Shown one piece after another: positions 18,684-56,477 of a stretch of 64,000 bases of DNA. Within the stretch, counting starts at the first letter, position 1. Every line of letters begins with the position of its first letter. The notes under the pieces were generated by a model, which saw only the letters and a program-made list of their open reading frames with translations, searched no databases and had not been told where the DNA came from. Source of the DNA: a virus (Duplodnaviria > Caudoviricetes); the IMG/VR virus record IMGVR_UViG_3300005683_000068, positions 10,218 to 74,217 of that record, one strand, 5' to 3'. Position numbers and translations under genes: made by a program.

Positions 18684-18712
18684 ATTTTATTAAATCTGCC
18701 TTAACGTGTCAA
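18684..18712 (-). promoter_or_regulatory. Sigma70-type promoter for the second virion module
   Basis: TTGACA (18712-18707), 17 bp spacer, TAAAAT (18689-18684). Confidence 0.75.
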
Positions 18713-18900
18713 TGCTTCTCACTTTCTAAACCAGAAGCAGCTCTATCATCATCCAATGTCAATTCCGTTCTCCTGATCAAAACATCTTTTGGAGCCTCTA
18801 TAGCTAATGAAACCCTGTGTCCATCAATTTTCGTTACTCGCACCACAATACCACCACCAATCACAATACTCTCACCAACCCGACGCGATAGCACTAGCAT
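18709..18900 (-). CDS. csrA: Carbon storage regulator CsrA
   Basis: 'MLVLSRRVGESIVIG...VSLAIEAPKDVLIRRTEL' is the canonical CsrA pattern. Confidence 0.92.
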   Translation of the reverse strand: MLVLSRRVGESIVIGGGIVVRVTKIDGHRVSLAIEAPKDVLIRRTELTLDDDRAASGLESEKH

Positions 18901-20213
18901 TGAAATTCCTTTCTTAAAGCAGATTCAATGTCACTAAACACCTGACCCCAACACCCTCGATAACGCTGTCTGAACAGCCTCATTGAGGGATACCACGGTG
19001 AATCATGTCTATCGAGCAACCACCTCCAATTTGCTACATAAGGTAAACACACCCAAACAGGAACACCCATCGCACCAGCCAAATGAGCGATTGAAGTGTC
19101 ATTAGTAATAACTAAATCCATGCTCATCATTACAGCAGCCGTATCCATAAACGACTGAGCATCATACTCTTTCAACTCTGCTGAAGGATTGATCATTCCA
19201 TTTTGGAGTATGTCTTTCTGTAAATTAACAAGCACAAAAGGACTAACTCCAGGAGTGCCTACTAAGGGCTGAAACAACTCAACTGGTATATCTCTAGCAG
19301 CCATCATACCAGTATAAATCTTGATTCCAGGATATGCCTGTGGGGCCTCACCTCCCCTTCCCTTCCAATTAACTCCAATCTTGATCTTGTTTAATCCTTG
19401 AAAGTAGTCCTTCCAGTAATCAACCAGTTCTGGATTAGCTTTAATATAACCAACCTCCCCAGGAATATCCTCAACATACTGAGTTAATATGCCAGGAATA
19501 GACATTAAAGGAATCTGATAATCAAACTCAGGAAGAACATCATCATAAGTAAACAGATCAATAAAAGTCTCTGACAGCAAAGACACAAGCTGCTTCTGTA
19601 CCTCACTTATAACCTTAAAGCCACATTCATTCTCCAGCATCCTTACATATCTAATAAACTGCATTGTGTCGCCCAATCCTTGTTCAGCATGAACAAGGAT
19701 TGTTTTCCCTTCTCCTGATTCTCCCCACCATCTAGGTTTATTGTATCTCGGATCAACTGCCTTCATGCCTACCGGAGGCCGTGCTTCATAATAAGCAAAG
19801 CCAGTCTCAAAATCACCAAGATGAAGCCTCAATTCCCCAAGGTTATAGAACAACAGCAAATGATTAGGGTCAATCTTAATACCCTTCTCATAACAATCCT
19901 CGGCAAGTTCATACTGCCCCCATTCATAAAAGTTGCGGCCACGGTTGCACCAAAAATGAGGATTGTTAGGTTCCAAATCACAAGCCTTTTTGTAAGACTC
20001 GTCTGATTCCTCAAATTTATCTTGGAGATGCAAACAAAAACCAAGATTGTAAAACAACACACCTGATTCAGGATCACAATCAATTGCTTGTCTTAATAAA
20101 GTCTCAGCCCTTACCAAATTATTAGACTTCATGTGACGCAGGGCTCTGTCACAATGATAAGCAGCAACTTTCCTACGCTCTATTCTTGTCATTTGATCCT
20201 CTTCTTCTTTCAC
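18894..20213 (-). CDS. TPR-repeat glycosyltransferase (GT-B, GT9-like)
   Basis: N-terminal TPRs, 'AEQGLGDTMQF', 'DLVITNDTSIAHLAGAMG', 'SPWYPSMRLFRQ'. Confidence 0.85.
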   Translation of the reverse strand: MKEEEDQMTRIERRKVAAYHCDRALRHMKSNNLVRAETLLRQAIDCDPESGVLFYNLGFCLHLQDKFEESDESYKKACDLEPNNPHFWCNRGRNFYEWGQYELAEDCYEKGIKIDPNHLLLFYNLGELRLHLGDFETGFAYYEARPPVGMKAVDPRYNKPRWWGESGEGKTILVHAEQGLGDTMQFIRYVRMLENECGFKVISEVQKQLVSLLSETFIDLFTYDDVLPEFDYQIPLMSIPGILTQYVEDIPGEVGYIKANPELVDYWKDYFQGLNKIKIGVNWKGRGGEAPQAYPGIKIYTGMMAARDIPVELFQPLVGTPGVSPFVLVNLQKDILQNGMINPSAELKEYDAQSFMDTAAVMMSMDLVITNDTSIAHLAGAMGVPVWVCLPYVANWRWLLDRHDSPWYPSMRLFRQRYRGCWGQVFSDIESALRKEFQC

Positions 20214-42345: not shown

Positions 42346-42588
42346 TTAAGATACAAGACGCATGGCATCTCCCAAACTGCAAGAATACTCATATTCAGTA
42401 ATCACATTCTCATTTCTAAGCCATTTAAGAATTTCCGGCAGAGAATACACAGGACCCATTGCAAGTTCCACAACAGGTTTAGGAAAGGTAGGATAACGAC
42501 TCCTCCAAACACAAACAAGTGTTCTACTACAACGAGCTATTTTGGCAATTTCGGTATTGCCTACCAAATGTTGAGGTTTAATCATCAT
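42346..42588 (-). CDS. AlpA/excisionase-like HTH protein
   Basis: 'LVGNTEIAKI...W..R..TFPKPV...GPVY...EI..W'. Confidence 0.7.
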   Translation of the reverse strand: MMIKPQHLVGNTEIAKIARCSRTLVCVWRSRYPTFPKPVVELAMGPVYSLPEILKWLRNENVITEYEYSCSLGDAMRLVS

Positions 42589-43103
42589 TGCAGTACCTTT
42601 CTGATTTCTAGGAATGATTCTGTAATCCTATTTTTGGTCCATCCCAAAGAATACAAATATCTTCGTAACACTTGGCGGATAGTAGCAGGTTTCTTTCCTA
42701 CTATATCCTTGCGGAGCCCTGGTGGAGTCCGCAGTACCAACTTGACTATTTTTTGAGCATCTTTGCTAAGGTCTTCCAAAAGTACAAACAAGTGGAATTC
42801 CTTATCCTCGTGCAAGTCTGGATCAAGTTCCATGAAGATAACCCTTGCGTGGAGTTTGCTTTCCTTGCGTCTGTAATCCAATAGGACATGCCACAACACA
42901 AAGCGAACATAAGTGGCAAAGGACGTTCCGTGTTTAGGATCATAGCGTCTGTAAGCCATTACAAATGCCAATCCTGCCTGTTCTAATAAGTCATAGAAGT
43001 TACCTCCATACTTGGCTCTGAACTTGTGGATAGTGTAATAGATCAGTTTCTCCACATCGTAAAACTGATCTTGTATTATGTGATTTTCAAGCAATACATT
43101 CAT
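42585..43103 (-). CDS. RNA polymerase sigma factor (region-2 type)
   Basis: 'DLLEQAGLAFVMAYRRYDPKHGTSFATYVRF'. Confidence 0.8.
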   Translation of the reverse strand: MNVLLENHIIQDQFYDVEKLIYYTIHKFRAKYGGNFYDLLEQAGLAFVMAYRRYDPKHGTSFATYVRFVLWHVLLDYRRKESKLHARVIFMELDPDLHEDKEFHLFVLLEDLSKDAQKIVKLVLRTPPGLRKDIVGKKPATIRQVLRRYLYSLGWTKNRITESFLEIRKVLQ

Positions 43104-49408: not shown

Positions 49409-49482
49409 TTTCTATCCCTTTGAGTAGAACAACCAATGCCCGTCAAAGTGACGGGCAGCCTCTTCTCTGTTCCATTCCAAAA

Positions 49483-50819: not shown

Positions 50820-52190
50820 CTAGCAGCCACTCTTGACCTTGCGAACCTCGTCCTCCCGCCAACCAGCAAACAGCATCTTCTCAACGTAGTCCATGTCCTT
50901 GCCATGCTGAGTCCAGTTGAACGCCCTCTTGATGAATCGCGTTCCGATAGTCCGCTCCACGCGATTCTTGTACAAGTTATCGCGATAGGAGTGCAGCTTG
51001 TTGACCCCTTCTTCCCAGCCAGGGCACAAAGCGAGTTCCAGCCCCTTGTCATAGTCCATTGCGATTTGGACAAAGCGGTCGATAAACGCACCGTCAAGTT
51101 GATTCCGTCCGCAGTATTGACGGTCAGAGCCATTGCCCCAAGTGTTTGCCGCAGCCATCGCATAGAAGTCCTTGTGCCTCTTGGCAATAGGCTTCTTGGG
51201 TCGATCAATCGGCAACTCGCCATCTTCCAAGCCACCATTGAGACTCAGCAGCACATTGGGATCGGCGGCATCTACTTCGTCCCATAGAAACAATCCACCG
51301 CCCTCCCACAAGTCAACGCAAAGCGTTGATTGGTAATGATGTGTCCCCTTGGTGATGTTTGGACTGACACGACCAAAAATTTTGCCCTCAGTGACCCCAC
51401 CGCTGAGACTCATCATCCCACAAGGAACACCAAGTACACGGGCAGCTTGTTTAGCCAAATATGTCTTGCCGCATCCCTTGGGGCCGACTAGCATCACATT
51501 GTCTCCAACCCTCAAATGGAACAGGACTTGCTCCATAATGGGATGCGTACGCTCCTCAAACACCTCGTCCTTCTTGCCGGGTTCCTTGATGACAAGTTCA
51601 ACCCGCCGAGCCTCATCCAAGTGCTTGATCTTGTTGTTGAGAGCAACCACAGTTGCTTCCAGTTCATCCAACTTGGACTGCAAAGCCTTGTTGGACGCAT
51701 CCCTGTCACTGTCCCCTTTCGGCTCCTTGCTGTCATCACCAAACTCCAGTTCGTAATTCTGGATCAGGTGTTTGATGACAGCAACTTTGCCAGCCGGATC
51801 AAACCGCCACTTCTGTTTTTCAGGTTCCCAAACACCACCAGCAGCGGATAGCGCTGCACGATGTTCGTAAGTGTTACCAGTAACATAAGCCACGCCGATG
51901 TCTTTCGAGTAGGCCACAAACAAGGGCTTCTGTTGTTGTTGCCGTGCAGTCGCCATCGGGTTGTCCTTGTTGTACTCCTTGTTGATCAACTTCCAGAGAT
52001 ACTTCTTGTGCCCACGACGTTCCAGGACCCCACGAGCTGTCAGCAGTTTAAGCACACTGCGATACTGCTCTCGCTGCGGATTGGACCAATCCAAACCCAG
52101 AGCGGTGAAAACCTCTTCGGTTGATCGGAAGCAGTATGTGTTCTGTTCCAAGTATTCGCAAGCCTTAATTGCAAAGTCACGGCGGTTCAT
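50820..52190 (-). CDS. MoxR/CobS-like AAA+ ATPase with N-terminal extra domains
   Basis: 'VGPKGCGKT', 'LWDEVDAAD', 'AANTWGNG', 'NQLDGAFIDRF'; possible internal start at MATARQ. Confidence 0.88.
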   Translation of the reverse strand: MNRRDFAIKACEYLEQNTYCFRSTEEVFTALGLDWSNPQREQYRSVLKLLTARGVLERRGHKKYLWKLINKEYNKDNPMATARQQQQKPLFVAYSKDIGVAYVTGNTYEHRAALSAAGGVWEPEKQKWRFDPAGKVAVIKHLIQNYELEFGDDSKEPKGDSDRDASNKALQSKLDELEATVVALNNKIKHLDEARRVELVIKEPGKKDEVFEERTHPIMEQVLFHLRVGDNVMLVGPKGCGKTYLAKQAARVLGVPCGMMSLSGGVTEGKIFGRVSPNITKGTHHYQSTLCVDLWEGGGLFLWDEVDAADPNVLLSLNGGLEDGELPIDRPKKPIAKRHKDFYAMAAANTWGNGSDRQYCGRNQLDGAFIDRFVQIAMDYDKGLELALCPGWEEGVNKLHSYRDNLYKNRVERTIGTRFIKRAFNWTQHGKDMDYVEKMLFAGWREDEVRKVKSGC

Positions 52191-52220
52191 CTTGTCATCC
52201 TTTTGTTAAGCGTTGAAATC

Positions 52221-52245
52221 AAAAATGACCCCAAGTTTGGGGCCA
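52221..52245 (-). terminator. Rho-independent terminator-like hairpin
   Basis: GGCCCCAA-AC-TTGGGGTC followed by ATTTTTG on the minus strand. Confidence 0.6.
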
Positions 52246-52271
52246 GCCTCTTCTCTGTCCCGAATGTTCAT

Positions 52272-52481
52272 CTAGTGCGGCCCACCAGCATCCCGTTTGT
52301 TGCTGGGGGTTTCAAACTCACAGCCTTCTGGAAGTCCAAAGTGCTCAGACTTCAAAGTCCACCCTCCCTTGCCACCCCTTTCAAACAGCATGGACTCTTC
52401 CAACCCCCGATGGTAAATCAGCATCCAATCATCATCTTCACTGAAACTAACTTCGCATGATTTGCAAATGATGAATTTCAT
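52272..52481 (-). CDS. Small early protein
   Basis: GGGAG RBS; CxxC. Confidence 0.55.
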   Translation of the reverse strand: MKFIICKSCEVSFSEDDDWMLIYHRGLEESMLFERGGKGGWTLKSEHFGLPEGCEFETPSNKRDAGGPH

Positions 52482-52543
52482 AACGGACTCCCTTTTGAAA
52501 CATGGCTTGAATCGTCAGCACCCAAGTAGCCAACTTGGAATGT

Positions 52544-52877
52544 ATGCTGTGCTTTTGTTTTGGGGCGGCGGGTTGCGGGTTGACTAAAACACTTTCAAAA
52601 TCTGTTCAGGGCTGTCCAATTGGACATACTCATACTGAGGAAGACCAATACATAACCAGGAATAGCTATCGCCAAGATTTGGCACAAACTGTACCAGTTG
52701 CGGTTCAGTATCAGTCCACCCAACCAATCCGAACTTGCCGCGTAGCTTTTTGACCATCTTCTTGGTGAAGGTCTTTTGATCGGCAAACGGCTGATCAAGA
52801 ACGATTGTCTTGTTGAGGTTCAACTTTTTCATGTTTCATTCCTTTTGTAAAACCGCCCCAAAACAAAAGCACAGCAT
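52544..52877. repeat. 25 bp perfect inverted repeat (ATGCTGTGCTTTTGTTTTGGGGCGG) at 52544-52568 and 52853-52877
   Basis: Read directly; encloses 284 bp containing one whole ORF. Confidence 0.92.
52584..52832 (-). CDS. First early gene, 82 aa hypothetical
   Basis: AAAGGA RBS; lies between the inverted repeats. Confidence 0.7.
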   Translation of the reverse strand: MKKLNLNKTIVLDQPFADQKTFTKKMVKKLRGKFGLVGWTDTEPQLVQFVPNLGDSYSWLCIGLPQYEYVQLDSPEQILKVF

Positions 52878-53340
52878 TTCATCTCTGTTGTTTCAAATTG
52901 TGATGCAATGGGGCATTGCGTGTACGCTTCACAGCGTTCAAAGAATCATATTCCGTGTATGGTCTTCACCGTCCGGCTTTCGTCTAACTCACTCCCCATG
53001 CCACACAGCACTAGCGGTACTTGTTTCCCAAAAGGTACTTGTTTCCCAGCGTGCCCTTTAAGATCGCGTCATACGCTTCACAGCGTTTCATTGCGATCCT
53101 GCATCCGCTGTCTGCCGCTTAGCTTGCGGTCTTACTTCTGCGGTGGATCGGGAGGGTGTGAGCATCAAGACTTGATTCTCGCCCCATTGCTTGCAGCCTT
53201 CAATCCGCTGCCGATACACTTGCGGTTCCCTTTGCCCCCTGTCCTTGTGCTGTCATCACGACGCTGGACCTGCGGGACGTGGTCGCCTCGACCAAGTGAT
53301 TGTCGCATCTCGTTGCGACTGACGAACTGGATTGCGAATG
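52878..53340 (-). ncRNA. Long structured 5' leader of the early transcript
   Basis: No credible ORF; two identical ACGCT-GTGA-AGCGT hairpins, a 15 bp direct repeat and several short stems. Confidence 0.5.
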
Positions 53341-53350
53341 AACTTCGTTC

Positions 53351-53379
53351 ATTTTAGACACCGTTACATACGTTGTCAA
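53351..53379 (-). promoter_or_regulatory. Consensus sigma70 early promoter
   Basis: TTGACA (53379-53374), 17 bp, TAAAAT (53356-53351); an AATGAAC-n3-GTTCATT dyad overlaps the -10/+1 region. Confidence 0.85.
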
Positions 53380-53447
53380 GTACGTAAACGTTAGAAATGT
53401 TGCGTGTTGTTTGTACAGTAGTTCTCAATCTGCACCTGTTTTGTAGC

Positions 53448-53475
53448 AATTTGCCGTGAAACACCCGGCAAAATT
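53448..53475. terminator. Hairpin at the end of the tail module
   Basis: AATTTGCCG / CGGCAAAATT; U-tract poor. Confidence 0.35.
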
Positions 53476-53496
53476 AAGAACTCTTTAAGAAGTGTT

Positions 53497-53994
53497 CTAT
53501 GGATATTGGAACACTTTGTCTGCCGGTCTGTCACCAGACAACGATAAATAAACGTCCTCTAGTCTCGTCTTTGGAACTGTGCGAGTGTATTTACCAGCGG
53601 CATTCTTTTTCCAATAAGCTGCAATGATCTTGCCATAGTTACCACTGCCATTGTTTTGAACACTCTCGATCACCAGCCGATTCGCTCCATTGATTAGCAA
53701 AGACATATTCAAAGCCACAGTCGGATCAAACAAGGCAGGGGTAATTGGAATGTTTGAATCTGCACCACCAAGAGTAATCGTGTACAGCAAAATAGAGGAT
53801 GGGGTGAGTAAAGAGACTCCACGGGGCTCTACAAAAATCCTGCCAGTGTAAGCGTCCTGATTGTTGTCGATGGTTCCTATTGAAGTCTCATTCAGATAGA
53901 CCTCAAAATTATCATCCTTAATTGCATTGCCATTATAAATGACAATGGCGAACAACTCGTCTGGTTGCTTCCTAGTGAACGGAGCCCAAATCAT
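53497..53994 (-). CDS. Hypothetical virion-associated beta-rich protein
   Basis: Start reassigned to MIWAP...; last gene of the module. Confidence 0.55.
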   Translation of the reverse strand: MIWAPFTRKQPDELFAIVIYNGNAIKDDNFEVYLNETSIGTIDNNQDAYTGRIFVEPRGVSLLTPSSILLYTITLGGADSNIPITPALFDPTVALNMSLLINGANRLVIESVQNNGSGNYGKIIAAYWKKNAAGKYTRTVPKTRLEDVYLSLSGDRPADKVFQYP

Positions 53995-53996
53995 AA

Positions 53997-56477
53997 TCAC
54001 GGTTCCCACGGAGCGACATGATGCCGACCAGTACAAGGATCACGCCAAGTAGAGCACAATTTATCTGCTTCACATTCATCCCCATCAGCAATGGCTTGAA
54101 ATGTCCTACCTGGCACACCTCCATAAACAATCGTTACCTGACCAGCACTTCCTTTTTCAATGGTTGAGGTGGGCTTAACAATGAAACCGCGTTCCTGATT
54201 TGGCACTTGCTCAACAATCCATTCCTCTTGTTCTTCATCCCAAAACAAGATCAAATCATCCCCACTTGTGCATCTCCAGCCATAACTATTTAGAGCTTCT
54301 GTTGGAACAGGATCAGGAGGTAGGCTAAATGGGGAGAAGTTTATTGGCTTAAAATTCTCAATAGGCTCATATTGAATGTCCCCTGACATGAACCCATCTT
54401 GGCCAGTGGAAGAAAATCTAGCTGTAGCACGGAAACACATTTGCTGGCATTCAATAATCTCATACCGATTAGCCTTATCATTCCAAATCGCCCGTCCCTT
54501 GGCACCTTTGGGGATTCTTGGAAACCTGAAAGACTCATCGTACACTTTGACAGTCGGACTGCCATTCCCTTGTATCCTTAGATCGCCTTGTTGAAACTGA
54601 TTGTCAATCTGAACGAAGAAATCAGGATCGCCTTTGTCTCTATTTGATGTAGTAGTGAATTCTATAATGAGAGCATTTCTTTGCATCTCAATAATTTCGT
54701 ACTTCCCATCAGGTCTGATCGAAGCAATACCAAGAGCACCAATAGGACCAGACCAACGGCCAAACACTGAAGATAATCCGTCAACTACTACTATACTCTC
54801 GCCTCCAGTATCATCGTAGGCATTAGCAACTAATCTACAAGTCTTCGCATTAGCAGAAGCATTCACACCCATAGACAGAGCTTCTTGCAACTTGAAAACG
54901 ACTATTTTATTATCAACTGCTCCTGATCTCACTGTGTACACAGGTAGCAAAAATTCTTCCTGTTCATCATCAAAAATAAATGTTCCCGGACTGGAACCAC
55001 ACAGCCTAGCAGGACCATAATACTCATCCTGCTTGGCCTTAACATCTCCCTTCTTATTATCGAAATTATCCAGAAACAAAATCCAGCAGGTGTCATATTT
55101 TTCTACCTGCTGATTATTCCATCTCACTACTCTACCTAAGTGATATTTTACTCCTGAAGATTGGGTTCCTTGTGCATCAGGGCTTACCTCACTTCCAACT
55201 TCCCCTTGGTCATGATGTACTTGCACCATGTTCACAATTCTTGGCCAAACAGGATAAGAATTTCTGTTTATGTCCATTGGCTTCCATGCCTCACACTCAA
55301 CATAACTCTGAGAGTCTCGTTGATAGGACTTTAGCAAGTTGGGTCCAACAAAATACTCAGTAACAATACCACCAAGCACATTAGAACCAGCATCATCCAA
55401 ATTACGCCAAACAACACCCTTAATAAATGGTCCAGGCAGTATATCAGTAACAAATCCTACTAATACCTTATGTTGTTTATCAATGTTCCAACGTGTTTTG
55501 TATCTCTGAAGTCTGTTTTGGTCTCTCTGATCTAATTCCTGTTGATTTGTAACTCCTCCAGTATCATTCAAAATCTTTGGCAAATCATCCCACAAAGCAA
55601 CAGTTCCTCTAGCTCCACTTACTCCTGTAGGAAGCAATGTAGGATTGGTAAAGGATGTAGCCCAATTGCTATTAAATTCTGTATCCTTCTCCTGTCCTAT
55701 TGGATGAAATACTGGATGATAGATTTTAAGATTTGCAGCGACATTGTTGGCTTGGCTGGTTACTGTTTCTCCATCCCACTGAAGAATAGGATCGTTCGGG
55801 AAATCAGAATCACCTTCATCACTTCCTAATTGAACTATCTCATAGCTGTCGTTAAACGGATTATGACGAATTGCACAGTCCAATACATCTAACACAGTAT
55901 TAAGCGTCTGATAGGCATTGTTGCCAATGAATAGCAAATCATTGGCAACACCATCTATAGGCAATTCTGATGGTAGTCCTGGGTATTCTCCCAGAAACAA
56001 ACAAGCATTCCATACCTGCTCAAGAAAATCATCCCAATCATTGAGACTAGTCCCGTCAAGAAAATCACTACCCTTGTCGCTTCTGCGGGGTCTTAGTCTT
56101 ATATTGGAACGAATATCTCCAGTTTCAGAATGATTAGCAGCTAAATTTCTGCTATCTCTAAACTCAACTAAGAACAAAGCATTTGGATCTCCTACTCCTC
56201 CCAAAGAAACCCTCTCGGCATTTACTAACCACAAGCCCTTAAATCTACAAGTAGTTATGTCTCCACCTGGGATTTTCTTTTGAGAGAAGGTGATTGTGTG
56301 TTGTTTGTTGGAATCTAAACTCCTAACATCTCTTCCAACCAAAAGAATATAGGCTGTTGTTGGAGCCGGTCCCAATGGACAAAACACACTATTAGCCTTG
56401 CCCCAAGCAACAGAACCTTTGGGAACAGAAGCAATAGCAGTATATCCATCAACAGAAACATAAGAAGAAATTTGCAT
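53997..56477 (-). CDS. Large putative tail/baseplate protein (826 aa)
   Basis: Long ORF within the structural module; no catalytic motif recognised. Confidence 0.55.
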   Translation of the reverse strand: MQISSYVSVDGYTAIASVPKGSVAWGKANSVFCPLGPAPTTAYILLVGRDVRSLDSNKQHTITFSQKKIPGGDITTCRFKGLWLVNAERVSLGGVGDPNALFLVEFRDSRNLAANHSETGDIRSNIRLRPRRSDKGSDFLDGTSLNDWDDFLEQVWNACLFLGEYPGLPSELPIDGVANDLLFIGNNAYQTLNTVLDVLDCAIRHNPFNDSYEIVQLGSDEGDSDFPNDPILQWDGETVTSQANNVAANLKIYHPVFHPIGQEKDTEFNSNWATSFTNPTLLPTGVSGARGTVALWDDLPKILNDTGGVTNQQELDQRDQNRLQRYKTRWNIDKQHKVLVGFVTDILPGPFIKGVVWRNLDDAGSNVLGGIVTEYFVGPNLLKSYQRDSQSYVECEAWKPMDINRNSYPVWPRIVNMVQVHHDQGEVGSEVSPDAQGTQSSGVKYHLGRVVRWNNQQVEKYDTCWILFLDNFDNKKGDVKAKQDEYYGPARLCGSSPGTFIFDDEQEEFLLPVYTVRSGAVDNKIVVFKLQEALSMGVNASANAKTCRLVANAYDDTGGESIVVVDGLSSVFGRWSGPIGALGIASIRPDGKYEIIEMQRNALIIEFTTTSNRDKGDPDFFVQIDNQFQQGDLRIQGNGSPTVKVYDESFRFPRIPKGAKGRAIWNDKANRYEIIECQQMCFRATARFSSTGQDGFMSGDIQYEPIENFKPINFSPFSLPPDPVPTEALNSYGWRCTSGDDLILFWDEEQEEWIVEQVPNQERGFIVKPTSTIEKGSAGQVTIVYGGVPGRTFQAIADGDECEADKLCSTWRDPCTGRHHVAPWEP

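Follow-up and report, generated by a model that had tools for sequence, protein, structure and literature searches.

A perfect 25-bp inverted repeat around the predicted first early gene of an uncultured phage: a candidate leader-trailer-type RNA helix

Why should one small gene at the head of a phage's early region stand alone between the two arms of a long, perfect inverted repeat, and does such a frame act in RNA, in DNA, or not at all? The locus that raises this question belongs to an uncultured phage, probably sampled in a bioreactor-sludge metagenome, of which we analyzed a 64,000-nt stretch (here termed the window) corresponding to bases 10218 to 74217 of a 74,217-bp IMG/VR record rated complete by CheckV. 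All the long open reading frames (ORFs), including the enclosed one (ORF82), lie on the minus strand. Among the products of the genome are a T4-type large terminase, a split family-A DNA polymerase, a gp32-like protein, a helicase, and an AAA_5/CobS-like ATPase adjoining a DUF7192 protein. Outside the window, a minus-strand gene (L232:211-3522) encodes a 1,103-aa protein in which four regions are combined, i.e., a Mu-type portal, a 2H phosphoesterase/Acb1-like region, DUF5661, and a eukaryotic-type topoisomerase IB catalytic core. The two ends of the record (1 to 17 and 74201 to 74217) have 17 bases in common, which fall in acidic-repeat coding sequence; a circularly permuted or circular assembly could account for this, although the record is classed as linear. 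There was no DNA match to the region among 50,697 phage records, and single-protein searches found no relatives. Relatives were gathered by alignment of the ATPase, which gave 137 loci plus further contigs with ATPase homologues.

The sequence-only reading of the locus had described a perfect 25-bp inverted repeat bracketing 284 bp that contain only a ribosome-binding site (RBS), an 82-aa ORF, and its stop, and in this it was exact. The arms (Table 1) are complementary at 25 of 25 positions, all of them Watson-Crick pairs, and their edges are abrupt. The 284 nt between them consist of 20 nt with an AAAGGAA RBS, the 82-codon ORF including its stop, and 15 nt, so that the unit with its arms measures 334 bp. 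No third site for the arm 25-mer was found in the window with up to three mismatches tolerated, the entire 74,217-bp record holds the two sites only, and the 25-mer recurred in 0 of 100 shuffles. By inspection, the arms have no internal dyad symmetry and are not palindromic. The same reading had noted that no transposase or invertase is encoded in the window, which was borne out for the whole genome, a search of its six frames finding neither a serine recombinase nor an rve transposase. Its further statement that there is no target-site duplication stood as regards an ordinary one, given that the flanks (GATGAA and ACATTC) have no direct repeat in common, but was too broad in one respect: each arm has the self-complementary AT at its outer edge, and a 2-bp duplication would therefore be hidden in the arms.

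The repeat is not an assembly artifact. A 6-kb region is identical in an independent assembly of the probable source run, from bioreactor sludge (depth, 32). In addition, a 254-nt contig from a 2022 wastewater run, belonging to a different study carried out seven years later, is identical to positions 52652 to 52905; it begins within ORF82, crosses the right-hand arm, and ends in the leader, in the reported orientation.

Consensus scans predict that both arms are carried on one early transcript (Table 1). The putative promoter is the best match in the 9.6-kb early region and the only near-consensus sigma-70 site there. The scans detected no terminator-like site between this promoter and the end of ORF69, and hence none between the arms. 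The gene had been said to lie right after the main promoter, which is inexact, as a leader of ~466 nt separates the predicted promoter from the 5′ arm. A phage-encoded sigma-70 region 2 protein (window 42585 to 43103, minus strand) is found at the same relative place in the relatives L003, L005, L006, and L236, and its being kept in place suggests early transcription by the host polymerase followed by sigma-directed transcription later.

Table 1. Features of the predicted early transcription unit around ORF82 (window coordinates)
Feature	Position	Strand	Remarks
Sigma-70-type promoter, TTGACA-17-TAAAAT (predicted)	53351..53379	minus	11/12 matches; consensus scans only
Untranslated leader, ~466 nt, GC 0.53	52878..53343	minus	Partly conserved in L003 and L005
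ACAGAGA box	52882..52888	minus	4 nt before 5′ arm
5′ arm of long-range helix	52853..52877	minus	Ends 20 nt before ORF82 AUG (minus-strand transcript)
ORF82 translation initiation region: AAAGGAA, 6 nt, AUG	52833..52852	minus	Outside helix
ORF82, 82-aa orphan, sole cargo	52584..52832	minus	ORF list; native-like codon use
3′ arm of helix	52544..52568	minus	Starts 15 nt past ORF82 stop; C-rich, G-poor
ORF69, second early gene, orphan	52272..52481	minus	Downstream of 3′ arm, same predicted transcript
First terminator-like hairpin plus T-run downstream of promoter	52226..52245	minus	Likely 3′ end of two-gene early transcript

The leader has features of its own. It contains two identical hairpins (53073 to 53086 and 52924 to 52937), each with a 5-bp stem, ACGCT/AGCGT, and a GUGA loop of the GNRA type. 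Three copies of this hairpin, also with GUGA, are present in the leader (185 to 700) of the nearest relative, L003, whose ATPase is 55% identical, and one copy with a GGGA loop is present in L005 (1020 to 1440; ATPase 49% identical). A second leader block, GTGTGGCAT, is common to L003. That noncoding leader sequence has been kept at 49 to 55% ATPase identity suggests that the leader is functional. The hairpin 16-mer had 86 matches in IMG/VR, nearly all of them single and in the number expected by chance, and Rfam gave no match at E below 0.4 in 51500 to 54500. Between the two hairpins lies a tandem direct repeat of a 15-mer (53016 to 53048; start-to-start distance, 18). The L003 leader has a 14-nt perfect long-range pairing of its own, present in the minimum-energy fold; it encloses noncoding RNA and is not positionally homologous to the ORF82 helix.

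As for known sequence boxes, TTCTTTGAA at 52945 resembles what we take to be the boxA consensus; it is absent from the corresponding place in L003, and of its six genomic copies, four fall within long ORFs. The sequence CTGTGTGG at 53008 resembles the boxC core of a previous report (PMC10250234) but is placed outside the helix. The ACAGAGA box opens an exact 15-mer, ACAGAGAAGAGGCTG, found at window positions 52244 to 52258 and 49456 to 49470 (minus strand), both times directly before a terminator-like hairpin (52258 to 52226 and 49470 to 49437), with a degenerate copy, which has the ACAGAGA in common, 4 nt before the 5′ arm.

Folding of the 1,129-nt predicted transcript gave 23 of the 25 arm pairs a probability of 1.00, and the outer two 0.89 and 0.98. 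The arm helix dominates the predicted fold, a local 381-nt fold has a z score of −5.6, and neither arm has a significant local competitor hairpin. Counting one G-U pair, the 25 perfect pairs become 26 contiguous ones, and four more follow beyond a small loop (~30 in total). The expectation at the RNA level, that a 25-bp duplex would loop out the whole cistron, thus fits the predicted cotranscription and the pair probabilities of ~1.0. The RBS and the stop codon of ORF82 both lie outside the helix, with margins of 20 nt and 15 nt, about one ribosome footprint each; an initiating or terminating ribosome therefore need not open it. Neither the Shine-Dalgarno sequence (AAAGGAA, in an unpaired stretch) nor the start codon is sequestered by the helix. 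A switch based on local pairing of the 5′ arm with the Shine-Dalgarno region was considered and rejected, the hairpin not being significant. We also observed that the minus-strand trailer past the ORF82 stop (52544 to 52610, 3′ arm included) is strongly C-rich and G-poor, resembling a Rho-loading site, and that pairing with the G/U-rich 5′ arm would cover it.

By analogy with rRNA precursors, we tentatively propose that the arms act in RNA as a leader-trailer-type helix that loops out the first early cistron, a reading to which we give somewhat less than an even chance; the helix would then probably serve as an RNase III substrate, a means of end protection, or both. Host RNA polymerase would start at the sigma-70-type promoter and transcribe, in this order, the 466-nt leader, the 5′ arm, ORF82, the 3′ arm, ORF69, and the terminator-like hairpin. 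Once transcribed, the 3′ arm would pair with the 5′ arm, and the whole ORF82 translation unit would be looped out. A helix of such length is expected to be a substrate for the double-strand-specific RNase III of the host; the phage genome encodes no RNase III, and the host enzyme is assumed. Cleavage would part the leader, the ORF82 message, and the ORF69 message, and would leave the ends of the ORF82 message paired and protected. Even without cleavage, the helix would shield the cistron from the folded leader and mask the C-rich trailer.

The closest layout is that of rRNA operons, in which RNase III processes leader-trailer helices of 25 to 40 bp that follow boxB-boxA-boxC (PMC10250234). Here, too, flanking sequences on one predicted transcript would form a helix that loops the cargo out, and a long leader carries small hairpins; the ORF82 helix exceeds the 20 bp looked for in such a stem, and its length suits RNase III. 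Unlike in rRNA operons, the cargo is a translated 82-codon mRNA, the leader has no convincing boxA or boxC, cleavage is a prediction only, and covariation support for the helix is lacking, no relative having the arms or ORF82. The early transcripts of T7 and T3, products of the host polymerase, are cut by RNase III into single-gene messages, the ends of which are stabilized by the remaining stem. The cutting of an early phage transcript into single-gene messages, as proposed here, would be similar, whereas the T7 sites are local hairpins between genes and not distant arms around a whole cistron. In the mRNAs of hok and other type I toxins, pairing of the 5′ and 3′ ends (fold-back inhibition) locks a small cistron in a compact, stable RNA. 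In ORF82, by contrast, the protein is not of the small hydrophobic toxin type, there is no evident antisense RNA gene, and the start region is free. Long-distance pairing between the untranslated ends of one mRNA is also known from icaR of Staphylococcus aureus, where it creates an RNase III site (PMC3868564). The icaR 3′ untranslated region (UTR) pairs with the Shine-Dalgarno sequence and blocks translation; in ORF82, by contrast, the Shine-Dalgarno sequence is outside the helix.

The very perfection of the arms counts against an RNA role, since pairing maintained in RNA only would tolerate G-U pairs and mismatches; perfect Watson-Crick arms with abrupt ends look young or DNA constrained. The duplex energies, −51.7 kcal/mol for the sense arms and −51.3 kcal/mol for the antisense, are equal in effect, and the arms thus bear no mark of the sense RNA. 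For the same reason, G-U extensions of the helix specific to one strand were set aside as uninformative.

The arms could, instead, be the terminal inverted repeats of a small inserted gene cassette, a DNA-level scar with no function today, left when ORF82 with its own RBS entered an intercistronic module through a transposase acting in trans or through illegitimate recombination. Arms of 25 bp that are perfect and end abruptly are what terminal inverted repeats look like, and the cargo is an orphan absent from the 137 related loci. Moreover, deletion of the 334 bp would join the flanks in the order ACAGAGA, 9 nt, a 6-bp hairpin, a spacer, an RBS, and AUG, a layout found in two other intercistronic modules of the genome, and L003 has homologous sequence around an ORF69-type start without the cassette. 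The outermost AT could conceal a 2-bp duplication. Elements of comparable design exist: the mycobacteriophage elements MPME1 and MPME2 are ~440 bp long, have short inverted repeats and one small ORF, and occur in many copies in many genomes. The ORF82 unit shares with these and with MITE-like cassettes a small size, inverted-repeat bounds, a single small ORF, and a phage genome as its site, but it is single copy and was found nowhere else in the collections searched.

Searches for the arms weigh against such an insertion. No second copy exists in the genome beyond the pair itself, the exact arm gave no match in IMG/VR or in JGI metagenome contigs, and 185,579 reference genomes yielded two single chance matches to a 20-mer. 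The outer 16-mer of the arm had 29 chance matches in IMG/VR, none with an inverted partner. The genome encodes no enzyme of the rve transposase or serine recombinase type that might have moved the unit, and cut-and-paste elements seldom have terminal repeats without an ordinary duplication. ORF82, the ORF69 gene, and the arms are likewise absent from all 137 ATPase-linked loci and the further contigs. The idea of a swappable slot found no backing, as no other genome had the same arms around a different cargo; the relatives, checked for whether they keep the repeats while carrying different ORFs, had neither the gene nor the repeat.

The gene itself does not look foreign, a further point against the scar. 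Its codon score is 0.203 per codon versus 0.267 ± 0.108 for 36 long genes, the other reading frames scoring strongly negative, and its initiation region is similar to the ones before ORF69 and the ATPase gene (direct-repeat family D1). On balance we regard a functionless insertion scar as rather unlikely. The leader-trailer-type helix does not depend on the outcome, in that it is still plausible for the frame to have first come by insertion at the DNA level; this would concern its origin only and would not conflict with a function in RNA.

Two other ORFs touch the unit. An antisense ORF in the cassette (52544 to 52750, plus strand) was rejected as a real gene, with a codon score of 0.014 versus 0.203 for ORF82, and a 13-codon upstream ORF that runs from the first base of the 5′ arm has no convincing RBS. 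The product of ORF82 had no match in Pfam, PHROGs, NCBIfam, or PDB sequences and no relative among 5.8 billion clustered proteins. A full HMMER search returned only matches to a ~30-residue motif that is present in up to 24 repeats in giant proteins; we discarded these as homologues, each pairwise match being weak (~1e-3). The ESM Atlas gave low-confidence small-barrel look-alikes only, and the AlphaFold model (pLDDT, 42) was unusable. An anti-defense role for this protein would be a guess.

Could the repeat be a neutral by-product, for instance of a replication template switch or of a recent inverted microduplication that has not yet decayed? Its perfect identity and the lack of any sign of conservation would fit, and similar repeats do arise now and then: perfect nonpalindromic inverted repeats of at least 18 nt, 100 to 1,500 nt apart, occurred at ~4 distinct places in 1.78 Mb of other phage and metagenome loci. 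The exact placement of the arms outside a complete translation unit, with footprint-sized margins on both sides, weighs against this reading, and a helix of −52 kcal/mol would hardly be neutral in an early RNA that is highly transcribed. The sequence was, furthermore, identical in the second study seven years later. We therefore consider a neutral origin unlikely.

A different DNA-level proposal was an invertible ON/OFF cassette, in which recombination between the arms would flip the 284-bp segment and place ORF82 antisense to the operon. Known invertible segments (Hin/Gin/Cin, fimS, and the Bacteroides invertons) are short and flanked by inverted repeats of 9 to 30 bp; the hix and gix sites are 26 bp. 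The arms are of about this length, and their 25 bp of identity, close to the minimum for homologous recombination, makes rare flipping conceivable. Unlike for the known systems, no recombinase was found for the ORF82 segment, its arms have no dyad symmetry, it contains no promoter, and one orientation was seen. There was no Resolvase-family match in six frames of the genome, and the only Phage_integrase signal was subthreshold (13.3 bits), on the topoisomerase-IB domain of the 1,103-aa portal fusion protein. The arms lack, by inspection, the dyad symmetry of recombinase core sites. The segment contains no promoter or alternative coding end, so that a flip could only silence one gene. Both the source contig (depth, 32) and the contig from the other study cross an arm in the reported orientation, with no alternative joint; contigs drop rare variants, and the single orientation in two samples is thus of low power. 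Taken together, these data make an invertible switch very unlikely.

The arms might also be paired protein-binding sites at which a regulator of the phage or the host loops the DNA or blocks transcription around ORF82. The coding strand has four copies of the motif GCTGTG between 52875 and 53084, one of them at the start of the 5′ arm, and related phages have large mirrored repeats in a divergent promoter region. Against this, 25 bp of perfect identity exceeds what an operator needs, the arms are not palindromic, and no DNA-binding protein was identified nearby, both neighboring ORFs being orphans. Paired operators are, in our view, very improbable.

The mirrored repeats just mentioned are instructive in themselves. 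In L095, L096, and L153, the ATPase and DUF7192 genes point away from each other, and the ~400-bp mirrored intergenic region between them (L095:4594-4994) has perfect inverted repeats of 41 nt, 18 nt, and 14 nt, both ATG starts included. The 41-nt and 18-nt repeats are on divergent transcripts, which rules out their pairing in one RNA. They are a caution for the RNA reading of the ORF82 arms, as they show that perfect inverted repeats in this phage group can have other causes. The region has the appearance of a mirror-image promoter plus 5′ UTR for two partner genes.

The leader-trailer-type helix also raises the question of whether other genes of the phage are framed in the same manner. For 87 genes, the 70 nt before the start were paired with the 70 nt after the stop. 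ORF82 was the lone extreme, with 26 contiguous pairs, whereas 2,610 permuted pairings reached 18 at most. The runner-up of the 87 was a csrA homologue (18709 to 18900, minus strand; 63 aa; Pfam CsrA, 1e-18), the framing helix of which (18690 to 18930) has 16 bp including two G-U pairs. Its 5′ arm ends 13 nt before the AUG and its 3′ arm starts 4 nt past the stop, the same geometry as that of the ORF82 helix. The two G-U pairs mean that this pairing is possible in the sense RNA only, and the predicted csrA helix is the only hint of strand-specific pairing in the genome. It is of borderline significance, with ~0.1 such helices expected per genome, and csrA-framing helices in 30 other phage loci were at background level.

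A broader form of the proposal would be that the phage expresses chosen small genes, i.e., ORF82 and perhaps the csrA homologue, as rRNA-style cassettes. A helix would form on the nascent transcript, host RNase III would excise a discrete mRNA with protected ends, Nus factors, possibly recruited by the structured leader, might assist, and the frame, not the gene, would be the unit that is kept or exchanged. We regard this generalization as rather unlikely. If true, it would represent a general and so far undescribed phage format for the expression of accessory genes.

As an insertion scar and nothing more, the repeat would be a minor curiosity. An RNA function of the helix, if real, would extend the layout of rRNA precursor processing to a protein-coding phage gene, in a lineage distant from the coliphages that served to define how RNase III processes early messages, and would also provide a simple rule by which the dose and lifetime of the phage's very first protein may be set.
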